Positions 7,638 to 46,761 of a DNA stretch of 64,000 nucleotides are shown here, piece by piece. The notes beneath the pieces are model-generated. The model saw only the letters and a list, made by a program, of their open reading frames with translations. It was not told where the DNA came from and ran no database searches. Position numbers and translations under genes: made by a program. Numbering within the stretch: position 1 is the stretch's first letter; every line of letters begins with the position of its first letter. This DNA comes from an uncultured Pelagibacteraceae bacterium. GTDB taxonomy: Bacteria; Pseudomonadota; Alphaproteobacteria; Pelagibacterales; AG-422-B15. The stretch is taken from the NCBI GenBank assembly GCA_902605215.1, contig CACLBX010000001.1, forward strand, positions 35,504 through 99,503, read 5' to 3'.

Positions 7638-8264
7638 ATGTTTCTTTTTTTAGACTTCACAACTGATATGTCATTAACTTTAATTGGAAAGCATTCTTTT
7701 CTAAGTAAAAAGATTAAGTCTAATAAAAATATCTCGGAAATTCTAGTAATAGAAATAGAGAAAATTTTTAATAAAGAAAAAATAAATATAAAAAAACTTG
7801 ATATAATTTTTGTTATTACAGGACCTGGTAGTTTTACTGGAATAAGATCTGCTCTAACCTTTGCAAAAACAATTCAGCTTACCAATAATACTGACGTAAG
7901 AGGGATCTCAAAATTTGAGTATTTGAATTTAATTGCGAACGATAAGAACTTATTTGATTTAAGGACTATACTAATCTTCCACAGAAAAAAGCAATTTTTC
8001 ACCCAAAGGTTTAGGGGTAATACATCCATTTCTAAACCTGAAATAATTAGTTTTGAAGAAAATCAGAAAATATTTAATAAAAGAACAAGTATTCTTTGTG
8101 ATAATAATATATTAGCTAGTTTTGTTGATAAAAAATATTTTGAATTATTTAAACAGAATATACACTTTATCGATTATAATAATGAAAAATTAAAAATATT
8201 GATTAATAAAAAAAATAAATTTACCAATGATCCAAGACCGATATACATCAGCAGTAACTATTAA
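7638..8264 (+). CDS. tsaB: tRNA t6A37 biosynthesis protein TsaB (YeaZ)
   Basis: 208 aa with the motif GPGSFTGIRSALTFAKT. Confidence 0.8.
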   Translation: MFLFLDFTTDMSLTLIGKHSFLSKKIKSNKNISEILVIEIEKIFNKEKINIKKLDIIFVITGPGSFTGIRSALTFAKTIQLTNNTDVRGISKFEYLNLIANDKNLFDLRTILIFHRKKQFFTQRFRGNTSISKPEIISFEENQKIFNKRTSILCDNNILASFVDKKYFELFKQNIHFIDYNNEKLKILINKKNKFTNDPRPIYISSNY

Positions 8265-8276
8265 GCCTTATTTATT

Positions 8277-8696
8277 ATGATAGATGTAAAAAAATTGTGC
8301 AGTGAAAAAGGTTTAAGGATGACTGAACAGAGAAATACTATAGCAGATGTCATAACCAAGATGAGTGCAGAAGGACATCCTGATGTAAATGAAATTTTTT
8401 TAAATGCGAATAAAAAAGATAAAAATATCAGTATTGCCACAGTTTATAGGACAGTTAAATTATTTGAAGAATACGGGGCTATTGAAAAACTTGAATTTAA
8501 AGATGGTAGGTCTCGTTATGAGGCGATTGAAGAATCTCATCATGATCATTTAATTGATATTGAAACCGGAGAAATACACGAATTCACAAATGACGAAATA
8601 GAAACTATACAGGCTAGAGTTGCTAGCGAACTCGGTTTCAAACTTGTTGATCATCGTTTAGAGCTTTATGGAGTTAAGAAAAAAAATAAAAATTAA
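8277..8696 (+). CDS. fur: Fur-family metalloregulator (Fur/Mur type)
   Basis: 139 aa. Winged-helix N-terminus (RMTEQRNTIADVI.. ATVYRTVKLFEE) and metal-site motif EESHHDHLID. No CxxC pairs. Confidence 0.82.
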   Translation: MIDVKKLCSEKGLRMTEQRNTIADVITKMSAEGHPDVNEIFLNANKKDKNISIATVYRTVKLFEEYGAIEKLEFKDGRSRYEAIEESHHDHLIDIETGEIHEFTNDEIETIQARVASELGFKLVDHRLELYGVKKKNKN

Positions 8697-9474: not shown

Positions 9475-10782
9475 ATGCAAAACCGTTCATTTTATGTAAA
9501 ATCGTATGGCTGTCAGATGAATGTCTATGATAGTCAAAAAATAACTTCAATACTTGAGAGCAAAGGACTAAAAAATAAATTAGACCCTAAATCAGCTGAT
9601 CTAGTAATTTTTAACACATGTAATATTCGTGAAAAGGCAGCACATAAATTATACTCTGATATAGGAAGAGTAAATAAACTGGGATTAAAAAAAACAATAG
9701 CAGTCGTTGGATGTGTAGCTCAGGCTGAAAACTCTGAAATGTTTCGAAAAAATAAATCAATCGATATTGTCCTTGGGCCACAAAGCTATCATCTCCTTCC
9801 AAAGATGCTGGATGATTTAGAAAATAATTTTAAACAAATTAACACTGACTTTATAGTGAATGAAAAGTTCGATTATTTGTCTGAGCAAATGAGACCACAA
9901 GGAGTGTCTTCAATGGTAACAATCCAGGAAGGATGTGATAAATTTTGTTCTTTCTGTGTTGTTCCTTACACAAGAGGTCCTGAATATTCTCGGTCAATTA
10001 AATCCATTTGCGATGAAGTAAAATTACTATCCCAAAAAGGAGCAAAAGAGATTGTATTCCTCGGTCAGAACGTCAATGCATATAATGATAAATCATATAA
10101 TAATGATGCCAAACTATCAGATTTGATCAGAGCAATTAGCGAATTTGATAGTGTTAAAAGAATAAGGTACACAACATCTCATCCAATTAATATGGATGAA
10201 GAATTAATTCAAGAACACAAAAATAATATGAAGCTAATGCCATTTCTTCATTTACCTGTTCAATCTGGTTCAGAATCAATTTTAAAAAAAATGAACAGAA
10301 AATATGACCCTGATTTTTATCGAAGAACTATCGATCGGTTAAAGAAAGCAAAACCAGATATAGAAATATCCTCAGATTTTATTGTTGGGTACCCAGGTGA
10401 GACAGATCAAGATTTTAATGATACATTAAAACTTATTGATGATATCGAGTTTACCCAATCATATTCATTTATTTATAGCTCAAGACCTGGAACCAAGTCA
10501 TCGACAGAAGCCGATAACACTCCCATTTCAGTGAAAAAAGAAAGACTCTTAGTGTTACAAGAAAAATTAAAAAAAATTCAATACTCCTTTAATAATGAGT
10601 TCTGTAATAAAACTGTAAAAGTGTTAATTGAGAATCAAAGTTCAAGCAATCCTGAGTATTTTTTTGGAAGAACGCCATTTATGCAATCCGTTTATATCAA
10701 GTCCAATGATCTAGTGCCAGGTCATGAAAAAGATATTGATATTACGTCTTGCAACCATAAGAGTTTATATGGTACTTGTTAA
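9475..10782 (+). CDS. miaB: tRNA-i6A37 methylthiotransferase
   Basis: 435 aa. UPF0004 N-domain (YGCQMN), radical-SAM CDKFCSFCVVP and a TRAM-like C-terminus. Confidence 0.93.
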   Translation: MQNRSFYVKSYGCQMNVYDSQKITSILESKGLKNKLDPKSADLVIFNTCNIREKAAHKLYSDIGRVNKLGLKKTIAVVGCVAQAENSEMFRKNKSIDIVLGPQSYHLLPKMLDDLENNFKQINTDFIVNEKFDYLSEQMRPQGVSSMVTIQEGCDKFCSFCVVPYTRGPEYSRSIKSICDEVKLLSQKGAKEIVFLGQNVNAYNDKSYNNDAKLSDLIRAISEFDSVKRIRYTTSHPINMDEELIQEHKNNMKLMPFLHLPVQSGSESILKKMNRKYDPDFYRRTIDRLKKAKPDIEISSDFIVGYPGETDQDFNDTLKLIDDIEFTQSYSFIYSSRPGTKSSTEADNTPISVKKERLLVLQEKLKKIQYSFNNEFCNKTVKVLIENQSSSNPEYFFGRTPFMQSVYIKSNDLVPGHEKDIDITSCNHKSLYGTC

Positions 10783-11822
10783 AAATTCATTATCCGCTTA
10801 ATTTGAAAAATAAACAAATAAAACCCATATCTGAAAATAAAAAGGACCTGACATCAGGATCTTCCATAATAAATATTGATAACTTAGATGTTGTTGAGAT
10901 ATTTGGAGTTAACAATGAAAATTTAAATTTTTTTGAAGATCAGCTTCCCATTAAGGTCTTTCAAAAAGGAAATCAACTAAATATTAAAGGTGAAAAAAAA
11001 TACAGAAATATTTTGCGAAATGCAATTTTAAAAACACAACAGGATTTAAAATCTAACAGAAAAGGAAACAATATTAATTTAATGCAGGAGAATCTAAAAA
11101 TGCAATCTTTAAATGAAAATGACAAAATAAGAAACTTGACAGTTACCAAGACAGCAAAACTTGATGTCATTGGCAAAAGTAAAATGCAAAATCATTATTT
11201 AGATATTCTTCAGAAAAAGAAAATTATCTTTGCAGTCGGTCCAGCCGGAACAGGTAAAACATTTTTAGCAGTTGCTGCAGCAGTTTCTCAATTATTAGAT
11301 AATAAATTTGACAGAATAATTCTCTCTAGACCAGCAGTGGAAGCTGGAGAAAAACTTGGTTTCTTACCTGGTGATTTAAAAGAAAAAGTAGATCCTTACT
11401 TGAGACCTTTATATGACAGTCTTTATGATCTTATGCCGTCAGATATAGCCTTAAGGAAAATTGAATCTGCTGAAATTGAAATTGCTCCCTTAGCTTTCAT
11501 GAGAGGTAGAACATTAAATAATTCCTTTGTAATTTTAGACGAAGCTCAGAATGCAACTCATACGCAAATAAAAATGTTCTTAACTAGGTGTGGTAAAAAT
11601 TCTAGAATGGTCGTTACAGGCGATCCATCCCAAATAGACCTGAATAGAAAAAGTGACTCAGGATTATTAAAATCAGTTAAAATTTTAGAAAAAATTGATA
11701 ACATTGAAGTTGTTGAGCTAGGCTCAAAAGATATTGTTAGAGATGAAATGGTCACGAAAATTATAAATGCATATGATTCATACGATGACCAAATAAAAGA
11801 TCTTTTTGATAAATCATCTTAA
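10776..11822 (+). CDS. ybeZ: PhoH-like ATPase (YbeZ)
   Basis: 348 aa from a TTG start (start uncertain). Walker A GPAGTGKT, ILDEAQN, VVTGDPSQIDL. Confidence 0.9.
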   Translation: MLKIHYPLNLKNKQIKPISENKKDLTSGSSIINIDNLDVVEIFGVNNENLNFFEDQLPIKVFQKGNQLNIKGEKKYRNILRNAILKTQQDLKSNRKGNNINLMQENLKMQSLNENDKIRNLTVTKTAKLDVIGKSKMQNHYLDILQKKKIIFAVGPAGTGKTFLAVAAAVSQLLDNKFDRIILSRPAVEAGEKLGFLPGDLKEKVDPYLRPLYDSLYDLMPSDIALRKIESAEIEIAPLAFMRGRTLNNSFVILDEAQNATHTQIKMFLTRCGKNSRMVVTGDPSQIDLNRKSDSGLLKSVKILEKIDNIEVVELGSKDIVRDEMVTKIINAYDSYDDQIKDLFDKSS

Positions 11823-36568: not shown

Positions 36569-37981
36569 ATGTTTCAAGATCTAGAAAATGCACAGCCCTC
36601 AAAATCTAGCATTCGAGATCAATGGAATATTGTTTTAAAAAAACTTAATTCTGAATATGGAAATGAAATATTTAATAGCTGGATAAAAAATATATCTATA
36701 AAAAACTTAGACAACGATATTATATATTTTACAGTTCCAACAAGGTTTATCAGAGACTGGATTACTTCACATTATTTAGACAAGATTATCTATTTTTTAA
36801 ATCAAGAAAATCCCGATATTAAACGAGTAAAAATAAGCATAGATAATGCACTTACCTCAAATATGCTTAACCTTAATAAGGATATATCTTCGGGAAATAA
36901 TCATATTAAGGCTTCATTTAATTCAAATTCATCAGACGATTGGCCTTTAGATGAGAGATTCACTTTTGATAAATTCATAACGGGCCCTACCAATGAACTT
37001 GCCTTTGCATCAGCCAAGAGACTTTGCTCTGATGACACATACGAATTTAATCCACTTTATGTTTATGGTGGAGTAGGACTAGGCAAAACACATCTTCTAC
37101 ATGCTATAGCTTGGCAGATAAGTGAAGAGAAAGTAAATAGTAAAGTACTTTATCTATCAGCTGAACGATTTATGTTTCAGTTTATAAAATCACTTAGGCA
37201 AAAAGACACAATGACTTTCAAACAGAAATTTAGATCTGCTGATGTTTTAATTATAGATGACATTCAATTTATGATTGGAAAAAATTCAACTCAAGAAGAA
37301 TTTTTTCACACTTTTAACTCATTACTAGATTTGAATAAAAGAGTTATCATATCTGCTGATAGATCTCCAAGTGAACTTAGCAGTTTTGATGATCGCATGA
37401 AGTCAAGATTATCAGGAGGTTTAGTTGTTGACATAATGCCCACAACATATGAATTGAGATATTCGATAATAAAAAATAAGTATAGTGAATTAAGAGAAAA
37501 AAATAAAAATAGTATATTTGAACTTGATGAAAATATTTTAGAATTTTTAGCTAAAACAATAACATCAAATATAAGAGAATTAGAAGGTGCTTTAAATAAA
37601 GTATTCACTTTTTCAAATATATTAGGAAAAAAGATAGATATCGAATTAACAAAATCAGTTCTTAAAGATTTGCTTAAATCTAGCAATCGAAGAATAACAA
37701 TCGATGAGATTCAAAATAAAGTTGCAAGTTATTTTAATATTAAAATTGATGATCTTATTTCAAGTAGAAGGATCAGAACTTTTGCTCGACCAAGACAGGT
37801 TGCGATGTACCTTACAAAAAAACTGACCACTAGATCTTTACCAGAGATTGGTAGAAAATTTGGAGGCAGAGACCATACAACTGTAATACATGCAGTTAAA
37901 AAGATTGAAGAATTAAAACAGAATAATCCAAAATTTGATGAGGATATTAATTTAATTACCCAGATGATCACATCAGTTTAG
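36569..37981 (+). CDS. dnaA: chromosomal replication initiator protein DnaA
   Basis: 470 aa. Walker A GGVGLGKTHL, IIDDIQF, and C-terminal DNA-binding RPRQVAMYL..GGRDHTTVIHA. Confidence 0.97.
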   Translation: MFQDLENAQPSKSSIRDQWNIVLKKLNSEYGNEIFNSWIKNISIKNLDNDIIYFTVPTRFIRDWITSHYLDKIIYFLNQENPDIKRVKISIDNALTSNMLNLNKDISSGNNHIKASFNSNSSDDWPLDERFTFDKFITGPTNELAFASAKRLCSDDTYEFNPLYVYGGVGLGKTHLLHAIAWQISEEKVNSKVLYLSAERFMFQFIKSLRQKDTMTFKQKFRSADVLIIDDIQFMIGKNSTQEEFFHTFNSLLDLNKRVIISADRSPSELSSFDDRMKSRLSGGLVVDIMPTTYELRYSIIKNKYSELREKNKNSIFELDENILEFLAKTITSNIRELEGALNKVFTFSNILGKKIDIELTKSVLKDLLKSSNRRITIDEIQNKVASYFNIKIDDLISSRRIRTFARPRQVAMYLTKKLTTRSLPEIGRKFGGRDHTTVIHAVKKIEELKQNNPKFDEDINLITQMITSV

Positions 37982-38044
37982 TTATTTTCATATTATTCAA
38001 AAAATTGAAGAAATATGTTACAGTAGTAAAAATCAATTAGATTT

Positions 38045-39172
38045 ATGGAAATTAAAGCAAACAGTTCTGACCTTTTAAAAGCTCTAAATCATATACATGG
38101 CATAGTTGAGGTTAGACATACATTACCAATATTATCTAATATTGTATTATTTGCAGAAAACAATGAGCTTAGCCTATCCTCTACTAATCTAGATATTTTT
38201 TGTTCCGACAAAATAGATGCAGAAATAGTGAACTCAGGGGAAATTTCTGTTCCTGCAATAACTTTCTTTGAAATTGTTAAAAGATTGCCTTCTGGATCAG
38301 ACGTAATAATGAGTATGGGCGATGAAGACACAGAGCTAATATTAAAGTGTGGAAGGTCTAAATTTAATCTTTCCACGTTAAAGACTGAGGACTTTCCAAT
38401 ACTTTCAGACAAAGACTTATCCACTAATTTTGTAATTAGTGCTGACGAACTGAGCAGGATGATAGACAAAACAAAGTTTGCGATATCTAATGAAGAAACA
38501 AGATATTATCTAAATGGTATTTTTTTTCATAAAGCAGAAAGCAATTCTATTAAATTTTTAAGAGCTGTAGCTACTGATGGACATCGATTAGCTCAATACG
38601 ATATACCTCTTCCACAAGGCGCTGAAGAAATTACTGGAATAATCATCCCTAAGAAAACAGTTTTTGAATTAAGAAAGGTATTAGACGATGCTGATGGTGA
38701 CGTAAGCGTATCTTTAAACGAAAATAAAATTAAATTTTCATTTAATAATTTGAAAATAGTATCAAAAGTAATTGATGGTACTTTTCCTGATTATACAAAA
38801 GTTATTCCCCAAAATAATGATAAAAAGTTTAAAACAGATAATTCTGAACTTAAAAATGCTATTGATAGAGTATCAGCTGTAGCTATTAATGAGGAGACAA
38901 AATCAAAGGCAATTAAATTAACAATCGAAAATAACAAACTAAATCTTAGTGTTGAAAGTCAATCCAAGGGATCTGCAAAAGAAGAGATCGATATTAGTTA
39001 TAGTAATGAAAAAGTTGATATTGGTTTTAACTCTAGATACCTAATGGATATTTGTAATGAGGTTGATGGTGATGAGATAGATGTAAGCTTACTCGATTCA
39101 ATATCGCCTGCTATTATTTTAGATAAAACTGACGAAAATTTATTCTTTGTTTTAATGCCAATGCGTATTTGA
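38045..39172 (+). CDS. dnaN: DNA polymerase III beta sliding clamp
   Basis: 375 aa with three-domain clamp pattern (TRYYLNGIFF, ATDGHRLA, C-terminal MPMRI). Confidence 0.94.
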   Translation: MEIKANSSDLLKALNHIHGIVEVRHTLPILSNIVLFAENNELSLSSTNLDIFCSDKIDAEIVNSGEISVPAITFFEIVKRLPSGSDVIMSMGDEDTELILKCGRSKFNLSTLKTEDFPILSDKDLSTNFVISADELSRMIDKTKFAISNEETRYYLNGIFFHKAESNSIKFLRAVATDGHRLAQYDIPLPQGAEEITGIIIPKKTVFELRKVLDDADGDVSVSLNENKIKFSFNNLKIVSKVIDGTFPDYTKVIPQNNDKKFKTDNSELKNAIDRVSAVAINEETKSKAIKLTIENNKLNLSVESQSKGSAKEEIDISYSNEKVDIGFNSRYLMDICNEVDGDEIDVSLLDSISPAIILDKTDENLFFVLMPMRI

Positions 39173-43429
<4,257 letters not shown>

Positions 43430-43484
43430 AAAGAAACTATAAATTATTATACAATTATTATAACTTTTAAATTTTGAATATATT

Positions 43485-44783
43485 TTGAAAAATTCTATTG
43501 ATTTATTGCAAAATGAAGACATTGACCTACGATTAAGGACACTCAACCTTATTCGTTGGACAGCAATTCTTGGTCAATTCTCTGCTGTTGTTATAGCCTT
43601 TTTTTATTTCCAAATAGTTTTTAATATTTATATATGTATTTTATTAATCTTACTTAGCGTAACTCTTAATGTAGTAGTAAGTGTTTTGTATCCTTTTACA
43701 AAAATTCTTAATTACAATGAAACTTTTTTTTATTTAGTTTTTGATTTAATCCAATTAATCTTATTATTGTATTTAACTGGTGGACTAACAAATCCGTTCT
43801 CCGTTTTGATACTGGCACCACTTGTAATTGCAGCCACATATTTAGATTTTAGAAGAACAGTTATAATAACAGCAGTTGCTATCGTTTCTCTTAACTTTTT
43901 AGCTTATTATTACTACCCTCTTGAGAGCTCAACTCTAGGTATCGGAAAAGATGATTTTTCTGGATTTGAAATATTTTTAATATGGTCTGCTCTTGTAATC
44001 ACTTCAATTTTTATAACGGCATACTGCTTTAGAGTTGCAGATGACTCAAGGAAAACAAGAGAAGCTTTGAGACAATCACAATTATCATTATCTAACGAAG
44101 AACAAGTTTCTGCTTTAATGAGCCTCACAGCTGCAGCTGTCCATGAACTTGGAACTCCACTATCAACAATTTCAATTATCAGTAAGGAATTAGTTAATAA
44201 TAATAAAGATGGACCCTTAGGTGAGGATTTATTAGTTATTCAATCTCAACTAGAAAGGTGTAAAGAAATTTTAGAACGATTGAGATCTAATAATTTGTCT
44301 GACAAAAGTAATGAATTTATTAATCAATTAACTTTTGTTCGATTGATAAATGAAATTGTTTCATCATACGATGACTATAAAATAAAATTTAACATATTTT
44401 TTGATGACTATTTTGAGAAAGATAAAATTGTTATTCCAAGGTCTGCTGAATTAGTACATTCTCTAACTAATATTATAGATAATGCATTTAAATACGCCAT
44501 AAATTCTGTAGAAATTAGTCTAAAGAATGAAAGGGAAAAAATTATAATCGAGATTGTTGATGATGGTCCTGGTTTTGCATCAGAAATTTACCCATTTCTT
44601 GGTGAACCATATTTAAGCAATAATAGAGATAAAAATAAGGAAGGTCTTGGTTTGGGTTTATTTATCTCGAAGAACTTACTTGCAAAGTCACTTGGAGAGA
44701 TTAAATTCCTTTATAGAAAAAATAAAGGTGGGTGCGTTCAGGTAATTTTAATTAAAAGCGCCTTAGGTCTTCAAAATGAATAA
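43485..44783 (+). CDS. regB: redox-sensing histidine kinase RegB/PrrB/ActS
   Basis: 432 aa from a TTG start. Multi-TM N-half with the quinone-site heptapeptide GGLTNPF, H-box AAVHELGTPLSTI, a Cys in LERCKEIL (redox-box position) and an ATPase domain (GLGLGLFISK). Confidence 0.88.
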   Translation: MKNSIDLLQNEDIDLRLRTLNLIRWTAILGQFSAVVIAFFYFQIVFNIYICILLILLSVTLNVVVSVLYPFTKILNYNETFFYLVFDLIQLILLLYLTGGLTNPFSVLILAPLVIAATYLDFRRTVIITAVAIVSLNFLAYYYYPLESSTLGIGKDDFSGFEIFLIWSALVITSIFITAYCFRVADDSRKTREALRQSQLSLSNEEQVSALMSLTAAAVHELGTPLSTISIISKELVNNNKDGPLGEDLLVIQSQLERCKEILERLRSNNLSDKSNEFINQLTFVRLINEIVSSYDDYKIKFNIFFDDYFEKDKIVIPRSAELVHSLTNIIDNAFKYAINSVEISLKNEREKIIIEIVDDGPGFASEIYPFLGEPYLSNNRDKNKEGLGLGLFISKNLLAKSLGEIKFLYRKNKGGCVQVILIKSALGLQNE

Positions 44784-45327
44784 CATTGAAAACAATTTAA
44801 ATTTGGATAAGTCGTTATTGATACTTGATGATGATGATGTATTTAGAAATAGACTTATCACTGCCATGATAAGAAAAGGTTACGAAGCATACGGCGCTGC
44901 ATCTGTTCAAGAGGCCAAGACTTTATTATCTGAGAAATATCCAAAATATGCTGTAGTTGATCTAAGGTTAGATGATGGTAACGGTTTAGAGATTGTATCT
45001 ATACTTTCAAAACAAAGATCGGATAGTAAAATTGTTATGCTTACTGGATACGGAAATATTCCCACTGCTGTTGCAGCGGTGAAGGAAGGAGCCTGCGACT
45101 ATTTAGCTAAGCCTGCAGATGCAGACGATATTGAAGCAGCTTTAAAAGCACCTTACTCATCTAGTCCGGAACCTCCAAAGAATCCTATGTCAGCTGATAG
45201 AGTGAAATGGGAGCATATACTCAGAGTTTATGAGTTGTGCAATCGAAACGTTTCTGAGACAGCTAGAAGATTGAAAATGCATCGAAGAACACTGCAAAGA
45301 ATACTGCAGAAAAAATCACCAAAATAA
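44776..45327 (+). CDS. regA: redox response regulator RegA/PrrA/ActR
   Basis: 183 aa. Receiver domain plus the near-invariant HTH NVSETARRLKMHRRTLQRILQKKSP. Confidence 0.93.
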   Translation: MNNIENNLNLDKSLLILDDDDVFRNRLITAMIRKGYEAYGAASVQEAKTLLSEKYPKYAVVDLRLDDGNGLEIVSILSKQRSDSKIVMLTGYGNIPTAVAAVKEGACDYLAKPADADDIEAALKAPYSSSPEPPKNPMSADRVKWEHILRVYELCNRNVSETARRLKMHRRTLQRILQKKSPK

Positions 45328-45339
45328 AATTTATAGAAA

Positions 45340-46536
45340 TTAAGCTACTTTACGACCTTTATTGATTTGTTCAAGTTGTGCTAATCCTTCGTTTGCTATA
45401 TCAATTCCTGCAACTTCATCATCTTCAGCGTTAAGCTCTTCCATATTTACAAATTCAGCGTAAGTTTTTCTCGTTCTTTCAGTTATGATATTTGCTTTAA
45501 GTAACGTTTTACACAGTACTCTAAATATGTTGTTACTTTCCATCATTTCTTCGCGTATTACAGTGTCTCGGTCAATCTCTTGCATAAAATGTTTAGTTAC
45601 AAATTTATGATCTAGGCCAACGCTTTGATAGATTGCTTTCTTTTCCCAAGGATTAACAAGATTATAAAGTAAATCTTTGAAAATCATAGCCGACCAATCT
45701 TCTACCTTGTATCTTTCTGATTCTGATAGTTTTGGAACTGTTCTATCTGCCCAAATTTTACCAAACTTATGATGAAAAGCTTCATCGCTCATTGTAAATT
45801 TCAAAAGAGTTTTTAAGAGAGGATCATTTGTATCCTGGTGCGCCATTCCAAAAGCTCCCATAGCAAGTCCTTCAATCATCATTTGCATACCAACAATCTT
45901 TTTATATACAACGTCAGATGACACGATTTGCTCTAAAATTCTTCCAAGAGTTGGACCAACCGGATAAGGAGACCCCCATCTTGCCTTTATATAATTAGTG
46001 AAGCCAGTGACATGTCGAGCTTCTTCACGGGTTTGGTTAGCTGCGTATTCTTGTGCACCTGGATCTTTTAGTACATGACAAAGGCTTGCGCTTAAAGATA
46101 ATGCACCTTGCTCACCATGTAGAATTTGAGAAAGCACCCATCTAAAACTTTCGTTATTTAATTTAATTTTTTGCTTTTCAGTCAAGCTATTAGCAATTGC
46201 AGGAACTCTAAGTTCCATACAAAAGACATTAGGATCGACTATGTATTCATTTTCCATATCAAACGGTTCCTCGAAATCAATATATGACTTGTCATTAGGG
46301 TCCCAAAAATGTTTATGAGTAGCTGATATCATCTGATCAAAACTATCAACTCTTTCAATGTACCTATCTTTTTCTATCATTGGTATGAAATGGCTAGGGT
46401 TGGCGGCGTTATATGCTGGATCTTTATTCATCGCATTTTTTCCATTACGCGACATTTGCCACATTCTTTTCAATTTAAAGATCTGATCTTTTGCATATAT
46501 TTTCGCAAAATCTAATTTTTGTTGTAGTTCAGCCAT
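45340..46536 (-). CDS. ferritin-like diiron-carboxylate protein of unassigned family (possible oxygenase/desaturase-like enzyme)
   Basis: 398 aa. Ligand pattern E142 (HGEQGAL), E172-x2-H175 (REEARH), E222 (MIEGLAMG), E252-x2-H255 (SDEAFHH), with spacing 30/50/30. About 130 aa N-terminal and 140 aa C-terminal extensions have no motif I recognise. Confidence 0.5.
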   Translation of the reverse strand: MAELQQKLDFAKIYAKDQIFKLKRMWQMSRNGKNAMNKDPAYNAANPSHFIPMIEKDRYIERVDSFDQMISATHKHFWDPNDKSYIDFEEPFDMENEYIVDPNVFCMELRVPAIANSLTEKQKIKLNNESFRWVLSQILHGEQGALSLSASLCHVLKDPGAQEYAANQTREEARHVTGFTNYIKARWGSPYPVGPTLGRILEQIVSSDVVYKKIVGMQMMIEGLAMGAFGMAHQDTNDPLLKTLLKFTMSDEAFHHKFGKIWADRTVPKLSESERYKVEDWSAMIFKDLLYNLVNPWEKKAIYQSVGLDHKFVTKHFMQEIDRDTVIREEMMESNNIFRVLCKTLLKANIITERTRKTYAEFVNMEELNAEDDEVAGIDIANEGLAQLEQINKGRKVA

Positions 46537-46560
46537 GGCCTAATTATACATAGTTTGAGG

Positions 46561-46586
46561 CATGATCATAGAAATTTATGAGCATG
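46561..46586. promoter_or_regulatory. imperfect palindrome CATGATCATA-GAAATT-TATGAGCATG in the divergent spacer
   Basis: 10-bp arms with one mismatch, 25-50 nt upstream of the diiron gene start (46536). Regulatory function is inferred only. Confidence 0.35.
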
Positions 46587-46761
46587 CGTTCATTAATAAT
46601 AAAAAATAAACGATTAGATTCAGTAGTTTATAGATATCAGTAAATTATGTCATAATTTTTGCATACTCAATATAGCTGATATTTATATTAGATTATAAAA
46701 GATTTAGTTGTACAAATTAGGTTTTTTTCCATATTTTTAGCCACTATTATAAATACCCATA

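Follow-up and report, generated by a model that had tools for sequence, protein, structure and literature searches.

A predicted dimetal-carboxylate protein family with an HAE3-type transporter gene partner in SAR11 bacteria and with copies in pelagimyophages

The T locus and the predicted dimetal site of its product

The window analyzed here is a 64,000-nucleotide stretch of the genome of an uncultured Pelagibacteraceae bacterium of the SAR11 group (assembly GCA_902605215.1, contig CACLBX010000001.1, positions 35,504 to 99,503 of the forward strand), and it encodes on its minus strand a 398-residue protein that we refer to as T (Table 1). Read along the plus strand, the genes around T are a YgjP-like gene, the genes for RegB and RegA, T itself (convergent with regA), a gene for a resistance-nodulation-division (RND) transporter, an ABC ATPase gene and polA. 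T and its neighbors are 97–99% identical to SAR11 single-cell genomes. An initial annotation, made by eye from the sequence, had read T as a diiron protein with a complete E/ExxH/E/ExxH ligand set in 30/50/30 spacing, and all residue numbers that it gave within the 398-residue open reading frame (ORF) are exact: E142, E172/H175, E222 and E252/H255.

When the T sequence was shuffled, two ExxH motifs arose in 23% of the shuffles and the full, correctly spaced E/ExxH/E/ExxH pattern in just 0.3%, so that chance alone does not explain the ligand pattern. Conservation, however, is the stronger argument for the predicted ligand set. Across an alignment of 34 family sequences, with identity down to 24%, eight columns are invariant, namely the six ligands together with Q168 and R174. 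The six ligands are also kept in all representative subfamilies except for one degenerate member, and T is under strong purifying selection. Three relatives of 550–564 residues (P0129, P0153 and P0168) carry an N-terminal extension of ~195 residues that matches no Pfam family; in P0168 several ligands are replaced (E172 by G, H175 by Q and E252 by K), which makes it a probable non-catalytic paralog.

In an AlphaFold2 model of T (predicted local distance difference test score 79.8, predicted template-modeling score 0.80), the ligands reside on four consecutive long helices (residues 120–155, 159–186, 210–235 and 239–269). T is thus predicted to bear a canonical 2-His/4-Glu site (E142; E172/H175; E222; E252/H255), housed in a core of four helices like that of R2, AurF and ADO (aldehyde-deformylating oxygenase). 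A hydropathy scan of T revealed no transmembrane segment (maximum 19-residue value 1.37). The core is flanked by strongly conserved extensions (residues 36–118 and 310–395), and residues 1–35 add an extra helix (2–30 in the model) that is found in SAR11, in phages and in a few other clades. The initial view that nothing is recognizable in these flanks has to be refined, in that the extensions are conserved and family-specific and that a match to the AurF family, described below, spans residues 69–310.

Table 1. Features of T and its surroundings in the window
Feature	Position	Strand	Basis
T gene, 398-aa ferritin-like dimetal-carboxylate protein	45340..46536	-	ATG start; homologous clusters, structure model
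Predicted four-helix core, residues 120-292, bearing the metal ligands	45661..46179	-	model helices; aligned with ADO ligand helices
E142 codon, first predicted carboxylate ligand (LHGEQGA)	46111..46113	-	invariant in 34-sequence alignment
E172-A-R-H175 codons, first ExxH (REEARH), with E171 before and invariant R174 inside	46012..46023	-	
F179 codon, four residues past H175	46000..46002	-	nearly invariant in 34-sequence alignment
E222 codon, predicted third-helix carboxylate (MIEGLAMGAF)	45871..45873	-	invariant in 34-sequence alignment
T248 codon, position of the third histidine of AurF	45793-45795	-	AurF/CylC motifs from PMC12101540
D251-E252-A-F-H255 codons, second ExxH (SDEAFHH) with the preceding Asp	45772..45786	-	
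Divergent intergenic region common to T and the RND gene, 225 bp	46537..46761	.	
HAE3-type (MMPL/Patched-like) RND inner-membrane transporter, 894 aa	46762..49446	+	Pfam MMPL, ACR_tran, Patched
Imperfect palindrome TGAGCATGCGTTCA, candidate operator	46579..46592	.	43-56 bp upstream of the T start codon
RegA/ActR/PrrA redox response regulator, convergent with T, 12-bp gap	44776..45327	+	NCBIfam NF033791, 280.6 bits, cut-off 250
RegB/ActS/PrrB redox-sensing histidine kinase, partner of RegA	43485..44783	+	NCBIfam NF033792, 389 bits, cut-off 350

Relation to known ferritin-like families

The only Pfam family that T matches above threshold is AurF (PF11583; residues 69–310, E 3.6e-7), and with 30.1 bits against a cut-off of 29.6 the match is marginal. 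No NCBIfam model matches T, and a search of PDB sequences with the single T protein returned nothing (best E 1.5). Foldseek comparison of the T model with the PDB, a check that the initial annotation had proposed, yielded R2 proteins of ribonucleotide reductase (RNR) alone, at template-modeling (TM) scores of 0.35–0.47, E values of ~1e-4 and root-mean-square deviations of 7–17 Å; a structure search of BFVD gave the same picture, with RNR β subunits on top. When the family profile was compared with solved structures, R2lox homolog II was matched with an E value of 1.2e-6, in an alignment that includes an N-terminal FWDP motif, and many ADOs were matched with E values of 3e-6 to 1e-4, both better than an AurF structure (E 0.065). 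In the profile alignments to the ADO structures 5k52_A and 4rc6_A all six ligand positions match (GE..A, E.RH, E..A and DE..H, which we take to be the metal-ligand positions of ADO). Scanned singly against Pfam, the 34 family members matched AurF in 27 cases (E ≤ 0.01), Ald_deCOase in 17, DUF455 in nine, R2 in seven and a methane/phenol hydroxylase family in four, and remote relatives gave sub-threshold NCBIfam matches to R2lox (23–38 bits, with cut-offs of at least 194) and to ADO. Overall, the profile searches set T at roughly the same distance from ADO, R2lox, R2 and AurF.

AurF and ADO, to which T had been likened at the outset, are thus real, if remote, relatives. The likeness to acyl-(acyl carrier protein) (acyl-ACP) desaturases, drawn at the same time, left no more than a trace; all three comparisons were reasonable, though none makes T a member of the family in question. 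For the desaturases, PF03405 gave no match at E ≤ 10 with T and none among the 34 relatives, and the mycobacterial DesA2 structure scored insignificantly against the family profile (E 0.17). In the sources, homologs are named at best "ferritin-like domain-containing protein" and otherwise "hypothetical", apart from one homolog called "P-aminobenzoate N-oxygenase AurF" in one source, and our literature searches found nothing published on the family. Given the borderline AurF match, the lack of any NCBIfam match, the remote profile matches to ADO and R2lox and the remote fold match to R2, we conclude that T is, as far as sequence and model go, a ferritin-like dimetal-carboxylate protein outside every characterized family and represents a distinct family between AurF, ADO and R2/R2lox. 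This outcome agrees with the initial annotation, which could not place T either; neither the profile nor the structure searches produced a confident match to a characterized family with a known substrate.

The AurF match suggests that T might be an arylamine N-oxygenase of the AurF/CmlI type, which would convert an aromatic amine to a nitro compound. This idea draws on the Pfam data and the one homolog name. AurF and T also have in common an acidic residue ahead of each ExxH (E171 and D251 in T, equivalent to D135 and D226 in AurF). However, the match exceeds the cut-off by no more than 0.5 bit, and the AurF structure fares worse than ADO and R2lox in the profile search. Moreover, AurF has a 3-His/4-carboxylate site, with its third histidine (AurF H223) in an HxxDExxH motif, whereas at position 248 of T each of the 39 sequences checked has T, V or I; E171 is conserved in these 39. 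In addition, T is not part of an aminoarene or nitroarene biosynthetic cluster, as an AurF/CmlI enzyme would be expected to be, but is found within a housekeeping stretch of a small, streamlined genome, with dnaA, dnaN, recF, gyrB, regBA, the RND gene and polA as neighbors, and in phages. We therefore consider N-oxygenation highly improbable.

Distant AurF-like diiron proteins, the CylC/NocO halogenases, act on ACP-tethered fatty acyl chains supplied by a FAAL (fatty-acyl-AMP ligase) (PMC8406957, PMC12101540), and what defines the CylC family is the motif pair QExxH and HxxDExxH together with a 3-His/3-Glu site that has an open coordination position (PMC12101540). T differs from these enzymes in having EExxH and (T/V/I)xxDExxH motifs with all four carboxylates present, and the numbering of NocO (Q128, E252, D282) implies, in a comparison by residue numbers only, a far longer spacing between helices 2 and 3 than the 50 residues of T. 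A divergent T subfamily, 37–43% identical to T, shares with CylC/NocO the same gene logic of FAAL, ACP and diiron protein. FAAL and ACP genes were found solely in this subfamily, and none is located near T in the window.

ADOs act on fatty aldehydes, which have a long aliphatic chain, and T could accordingly be viewed as an ADO-like deformylating oxygenase that would release formate and an alkane or alkene from a fatty aldehyde, with the hydrocarbon exported by the RND pump. Of the natural proteins with solved structures, ADOs rank among the best matches to the family profile; they share with T a four-helix ferritin-like core with six aligned 2-His/4-Glu positions, half of the 34 members match Ald_deCOase, and the adjoining pump is of a hydrophobe-transporting type. 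On the other hand, all ADO matches fall far short of the family thresholds. T itself matches neither PF11266 (at E ≤ 10) nor TIGR04059, and the best E value among its relatives, 3.9e-6, stays below the cut-off. While ADO chains comprise ~215–265 residues, T is ~170 residues longer, with conserved N- and C-terminal modules. Among the annotated neighbors of T in the window, there is no aldehyde-forming acyl-ACP/acyl-CoA reductase, and a sulfotransferase encoded in one FAAL-linked cluster (see below) would require a hydroxylated product. ADO-like deformylation hence appears quite unlikely.

The fold comparison raises a further alternative, an R2-like role of T either as a radical- or oxidant-generating subunit, comparable to RNR β, or as an R2lox-like Mn/Fe "ligand-binding oxidase". 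RNR β subunits are the top Foldseek matches in both PDB and BFVD (TM 0.41–0.47, typically ~0.45), R2lox homolog II shares the FWDP motif, and remote family members show the sub-threshold R2lox matches mentioned above. T carries a phenylalanine, F179, at what we take to be the position of the radical tyrosine in class Ia/Ib R2; class Ic R2 and R2lox likewise have a phenylalanine at this position, and R2lox binds a long-chain fatty acid. RNR subunits are, furthermore, classic phage cargo. Nevertheless, the structural similarity is low, given the E values and deviations obtained, and T has no match to Ribonuc_red_sm in Pfam or to the R2lox models of NCBIfam. The C-terminus of T (…INKGRKVA, or …AAE in other lineages) is presumably unlike the R1-binding tail of R2, and no nrdA gene adjoins T in cells or in phages. 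An R2-like role thus seems rather improbable to us.

Gene context in SAR11 and other Alphaproteobacteria

Mapping of distribution and conserved neighbors, as proposed in the initial annotation, revealed a large family. Homologs of T form more than 6,000 clusters at 90% identity, mostly from Alphaproteobacteria; an exhaustive profile search of 1.84 billion representatives returned 1,633 proteins with E values up to 1e-3, and 198 with E values up to 1e-30. At least 583 stretches of GTDB genomes encode T relatives, and the best 80 of these stem from Pelagibacterales, Parvibaculum/Parvibaculaceae, Rhizomicrobium/Micropepsaceae, Rhodobiaceae and Sneathiella. T relatives are also present in Phenylobacterium and Caulobacteraceae.

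Gene context was compared across 84 loci by ORF clustering and tblastn. The RND protein encoded divergently from T has the HAE3 family as its best NCBIfam match (TIGR00921, E 6e-56, below the cut-off of that model). The divergent HAE3 RND-T pair occurs in 19/19 SAR11 genome loci and in six other alphaproteobacterial loci, whose T proteins are 58% identical to T. RND homologs adjoining T in Parvibaculum and other Alphaproteobacteria are 43–50% identical to the SAR11 protein. Between SAR11 and Parvibaculum-type loci, T (58%) is about as conserved as GyrB (~58%), followed by the RND protein (47%) and RegB (34%). Small ORFs between RND and T in Parvibaculum-type loci were judged spurious and dropped.

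In one abundant SAR11 subclade (L112–L114, positions 8232–8459), regB is gone, regA is reduced to a 75-residue remnant with only the helix-turn-helix part, and the ABC ATPase gene is missing; RND-T, polA and gyrB are retained, and the T protein of this subclade is indexed in 149 blocks of the collection. As the pair is intact where regB is lost and regA has decayed, RND-T constitutes a conserved unit. Where the pair is present, RegA/RegB mostly flank T on the side away from the RND gene. RegA is found near T in all 19 SAR11 loci and in seven other loci; it is a syntenic neighbor of T and not necessarily a functional partner.

The intergenic region common to T and the RND gene contains the imperfect palindrome TGAGCATGCGTTCA as a candidate operator. 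This is the single match to TGAAC-N4-GTTCA, allowing one mismatch, in the 64-kb window, and the exact motif occurs once per locus at the same place in eight SAR11 loci (L011–L018, ~7944–7957). Its position across SAR11 loci is 43–57 bp upstream of the T start. TGAAC-N4-GTTCA was not found upstream of T in non-SAR11 loci, nor in the P0040 subclade of SAR11, which has a different palindrome, TGATATATATCA; the motif was therefore ruled out as a general operator. It may resemble PsrA or DesT operators. A scan for promoters and terminators around T gave nothing above shuffled expectation.

Upstream of this neighborhood, the window contains a dnaA-dnaN-recF-gyrB cluster (36569–42719). Cumulative GC skew climbs almost monotonically across the window, so that T lies in an origin-proximal part of the chromosome. 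The YgjP-like ORF (42716–43546, minus strand) and the RegB ORF (43485–44783, plus strand), the latter called from a TTG codon, share 62 bp although they run in opposite directions, and one of them probably has its start placed too early.

Outside SAR11, T adjoins genes for DUF1302, DUF1329 and BNR/Ycf48-like proteins in eight loci. Where ORFs could be called, at least five of them (L034, L036, L063, L064 and L070) have DUF1302, DUF1329, BNR and two T genes clustered on the same strand. The tandem T proteins are 73% identical in L063 (5416–7670), with genes 18–20 bp apart, and the pair recurs in L034, L036, L064 and L070; its place behind DUF1302-DUF1329-BNR suggests a heterodimer or two specificities in those lineages. 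According to published reports, DUF1302, DUF1329 and BNR proteins partner HAE3 pumps in AmeABCD-type systems, acting in the outer membrane and periplasm (10.1101/072470; 10.1101/2020.07.04.188060; PMC6394551). Such systems are implicated in monoterpene tolerance (PMC6394551), in growth on Tween 20 and butyl stearate (10.1101/2020.07.04.188060) and in the export of an envelope component (10.1101/072470). The tetrapartite AmeABCD or DUF1302-DUF1329-BNR-HAE3 systems and HpnN are to be seen as transport partners, not as relatives of T. As far as the accessible text goes, this literature mentions no dimetal protein with AmeABCD-type or HpnN systems, and our literature searches found no link between a ferritin-like protein and DUF1302/DUF1329/HAE3 systems. 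DUF1302, DUF1329 and BNR genes were looked for in the window and none was found, so that SAR11 has just the RND gene beside T.

Other lineages place T in other company. In Parvibaculaceae, a response regulator-HPt-response regulator set is followed by T and then by TetR, acyl-CoA synthetase and acyl-CoA dehydrogenase (ACAD) genes. In Rhizomicrobium, T adjoins genes for a CHASE2 cyclase, present in 17 Rhizomicrobium-type loci, and an enoyl-CoA hydratase. Taken together, genes for acyl-CoA synthetases, enoyl-CoA hydratases and ACADs are recurrent near T homologs. In L063, a second gene annotated as ACAD near T (10395–11546) encodes a protein closest to flavin-dependent monooxygenases of the Rv3094c/HsaA type (E 4e-70). 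The idea of steroid-type heteromeric ACAD pairs beside T was accordingly only partly borne out, as L063 has one generic ACAD and one Rv3094c-like flavin monooxygenase.

The signaling genes in these surroundings would fit a ferritin-like protein that senses iron, O2 or redox state, or stores iron, and works with signaling proteins. RegB/RegA lie beside T in SAR11 and the seven other loci, the response regulator-HPt-response regulator set and the CHASE2 cyclase take this place in Parvibaculaceae and Rhizomicrobium, and in one locus Fur and TonB receptors are encoded near the T homolog. Yet the signaling neighbors vary by lineage and are lost while T is kept, and the counts are not independent, as many loci come from a few related lineages (Rhizomicrobium, Parvibaculaceae). 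T, with 398 residues and an AurF/ADO-like core, is unlike 24-mer ferritins or hemerythrin sensors, and the FAAL/ACP coupling of the divergent subfamily as well as the capture by phages suit an enzyme better. We consequently regard a sensor or storage function as very unlikely.

The coupling to FAAL and ACP is seen in the divergent subfamily introduced above. In two unrelated loci, the gene of this subfamily overlaps the stop codon of the FAAL gene, and both loci also encode a stand-alone ACP, a condensation domain and C39-peptidase ABC exporters; one of them adds the sulfotransferase and a luciferase-like monooxygenase. A TubC-type docking domain is present in the FAAL-linked T proteins, one of which unites FAAL, docking domain and T in a single fused chain. 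In L084 (7487–12545), on the P0291 contig and around P0143, the genes form assembly-line-like clusters with the overlapping order sulfotransferase, FAAL, T and luciferase-like monooxygenase.

Phage copies and a possible role of T in acyl-chain oxidation

A scan of IMG/VR identified 26 viral contigs that encode T with 63–75% identity. In 24 of them (L087–L110), which represent uncultured T4-like pelagimyophages, the genes always follow one another as portal, gp21 protease, gp22 scaffold, gp23 major capsid protein, T, tail tube, UvsY and UvsW. The T homologs of these 24 contigs are intact and 63–69% identical to T (e.g. L090, 5996–7182). The capsid protein of the T-bearing pelagimyophages shares 74.5% identity with its counterpart in Pelagibacter phage Mosig, 71% with those in the OM43 Melnitz phages and 69% with that in HTVC008M. 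These cultured relatives lack T; as the tail-tube gene of Mosig directly follows the capsid gene, T is an insertion in the pelagimyophages.

A conserved cassette precedes the phage copy. After the capsid stop codon (5940–5998 in L090; L087–L108), a GC-rich hairpin with compensatory stem and loop changes is followed by eight T's. Downstream of the hairpin, TATAAATA is found in 14 of 21 loci and a CTAAATA variant in the other seven, with the ATG five bases on. We take TATAAATA to be the T4 late-promoter consensus, and the arrangement resembles a terminator with a T4-type late promoter behind it that leaves hardly any leader.

A second type of IMG/VR contig, comprising the other two of the 26 (L085, 5965–8482; L086), has T directly followed by a gene for a 403-residue ACAD, as do L116 and related metagenome contigs. 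Strong PHROG matches on L085, L086 and related contigs, with flanks in L121, are to a ClpA-like ATPase, peptide deformylase, a 2-oxoglutarate oxygenase and a cytidyltransferase; the examined stretches of these contigs contain no structural phage genes. The best solved match of the ACAD is 4x28_A (E 2.8e-56), which we believe to be the cholesterol side-chain ACAD ChsE4-ChsE5. T of this type is ~90% identical to a cellular SAR11 T located beside polA and the RND gene, and represents a second, recent capture. In a neighbor-joining tree, the myophage copies form one clade that is sister to the SAR11 clade. Judged from these gene orders and identities, T has been captured at least twice by SAR11 viruses.

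Every ligand and second-shell residue is retained in the phage copies, which suggests that T is functionally autonomous. On sequence grounds, phage T is an auxiliary metabolic gene, since genuine phage genomes contain it as an intact counterpart of the host gene. None of 50,697 GenBank phage records encodes T, no PHROG family covers it, a pelagimyophage survey and its supplements do not mention it (PMC7029224), and our literature searches found no listing of AurF-like genes among viral auxiliary metabolic genes. The closest parallels are lipid genes. Cyanophages carry lipid desaturases, and such phage desaturases are membrane-bound histidine-box enzymes. They resemble T as host-derived, O2-dependent diiron genes in T4-like phages, whereas T is soluble and ferritin-like. 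Freshwater pelagimyophages carry fabF and a stearoyl-CoA desaturase (PMC7029224).

The ACAD gene behind phage T also bears on the idea that T is a catabolic oxygenase for an exogenous hydrophobe (a hydrocarbon, terpenoid, sterol-like compound or ester), whose product would feed β-oxidation, with RND and DUF1302/DUF1329 proteins serving uptake or tolerance. The match of this ACAD to the presumed ChsE4-ChsE5 structure points in that direction, as do the many hosts in Parvibaculum and Rhizomicrobium, the acyl-CoA synthetase, TetR, enoyl-CoA hydratase and ACAD genes near T, and the ties of AmeABCD-type systems to growth on monoterpenes and fatty esters. However, SAR11 has a minimal catabolic repertoire, and its T gene is situated among dnaA, gyrB and polA, with no catabolic genes. 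That T is about as conserved as GyrB fits a core function better than a niche one, and a catabolic entry enzyme would be unusual phage cargo. A catabolic role is thus unlikely in our estimation.

We tentatively favor, at somewhat less than even confidence, the reading that T is the SAR11 member of a large, uncharacterized family of soluble dimetal oxidases or oxygenases that oxidizes an aliphatic chain, the product or substrate of which is handled by the RND system. According to the chemistry that we infer for T, its ligands would bind two Fe(II) or a Mn/Fe pair, which would be reduced by an electron donor of the host. The reduced cluster would react with O2 to a peroxo or high-valent intermediate, and this intermediate would attack an unactivated C-H bond in a long aliphatic chain by hydrogen abstraction, leading to hydroxylation or desaturation. 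As substrate we envisage a chain of fatty-acyl or lipid-like nature that is probably attached to a carrier, as acyl-ACP or acyl-CoA, or belongs to a membrane lipid. The HAE3 RND transporter encoded divergently from T would take care of the substrate or product, and for this transporter the DUF1302/DUF1329/BNR outer-membrane and periplasmic partners may be the equivalent in other Alphaproteobacteria. The intact phage copies suggest that the enzyme works as a single polypeptide that uses reductant and substrate of the host, and that its activity benefits infection.

That T is a dimetal enzyme is suggested by the six ligands among the eight invariant columns, the alignment with ADO, the AurF matches of 27/34 members and the R2-fold matches in Foldseek. 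An aliphatic or acyl substrate is suggested by several lines of evidence. In the profile comparison, ADO and R2lox homolog II are the closest relatives of solved structure, and the 37–43% identical subfamily is coupled, and in one case fused, to FAAL and ACP components. The HAE3 RND-T pair in the 19 SAR11 and six other loci and the DUF1302-DUF1329-BNR clusters point the same way, given the association of these HAE3 partners with fatty esters, monoterpenes and envelope lipids. Further indications are the recurrent acyl-CoA synthetase, enoyl-CoA hydratase and ACAD neighbors and the phage copy directly before an ACAD gene.

Several observations weigh against oxidation of an aliphatic chain in concert with the RND system. 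The substrate class is read from gene context and remote homology, in a family of experimentally uncharacterized proteins, and hydroxylation, desaturation and deformylation are indistinguishable from sequence. An RND or DUF1302/DUF1329/BNR gene comes within 8 kb of T in just 14 of the 63 genome loci outside SAR11, and other loci adjoin signaling genes instead (RegBA, response regulator-HPt-response regulator, CHASE2 cyclase). In SAR11, no ACP, FAAL, reductase or ferredoxin gene adjoins T. At 37–43% identity, the FAAL-linked subfamily may have a different substrate, and in one locus the second "ACAD" beside T turned out to be an Rv3094c-type flavin monooxygenase.

A more far-reaching proposal, which we put forward as doubtful, is that T founds a new class of soluble diiron (or Mn/Fe) enzymes carrying out an undescribed O2-dependent acyl or lipid modification needed for HAE3 envelope lipid trafficking in SAR11 and many other Alphaproteobacteria, and that it is at the same time an unrecognized auxiliary metabolic gene, captured at least twice by pelagiphages to sustain this reaction during infection.

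While ferritin-like, O2-activating dimetal enzymes as such are well known, what is new here is a distinct, uncharacterized family with its own architecture, gene context and phage distribution. SAR11 bacteria are the ocean's most abundant heterotrophs; as they keep very few genes, a retained O2-activating enzyme is likely to matter for their physiology. The pairing with an HAE3 RND transporter offers an experimental handle on the poorly understood functions of stand-alone HAE3 transporters and of DUF1302/DUF1329/BNR systems. With the phage copies, the gene set of the pelagimyophages gains an auxiliary metabolic gene that is apparently undescribed, and the copies imply that the reaction of T limits phage production. 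As a 2-His/4-Glu branch between AurF, ADO and R2lox, with more than 6,000 clusters and natural FAAL/ACP-coupled variants, the family would be good ground for finding new C-H oxidation chemistry.

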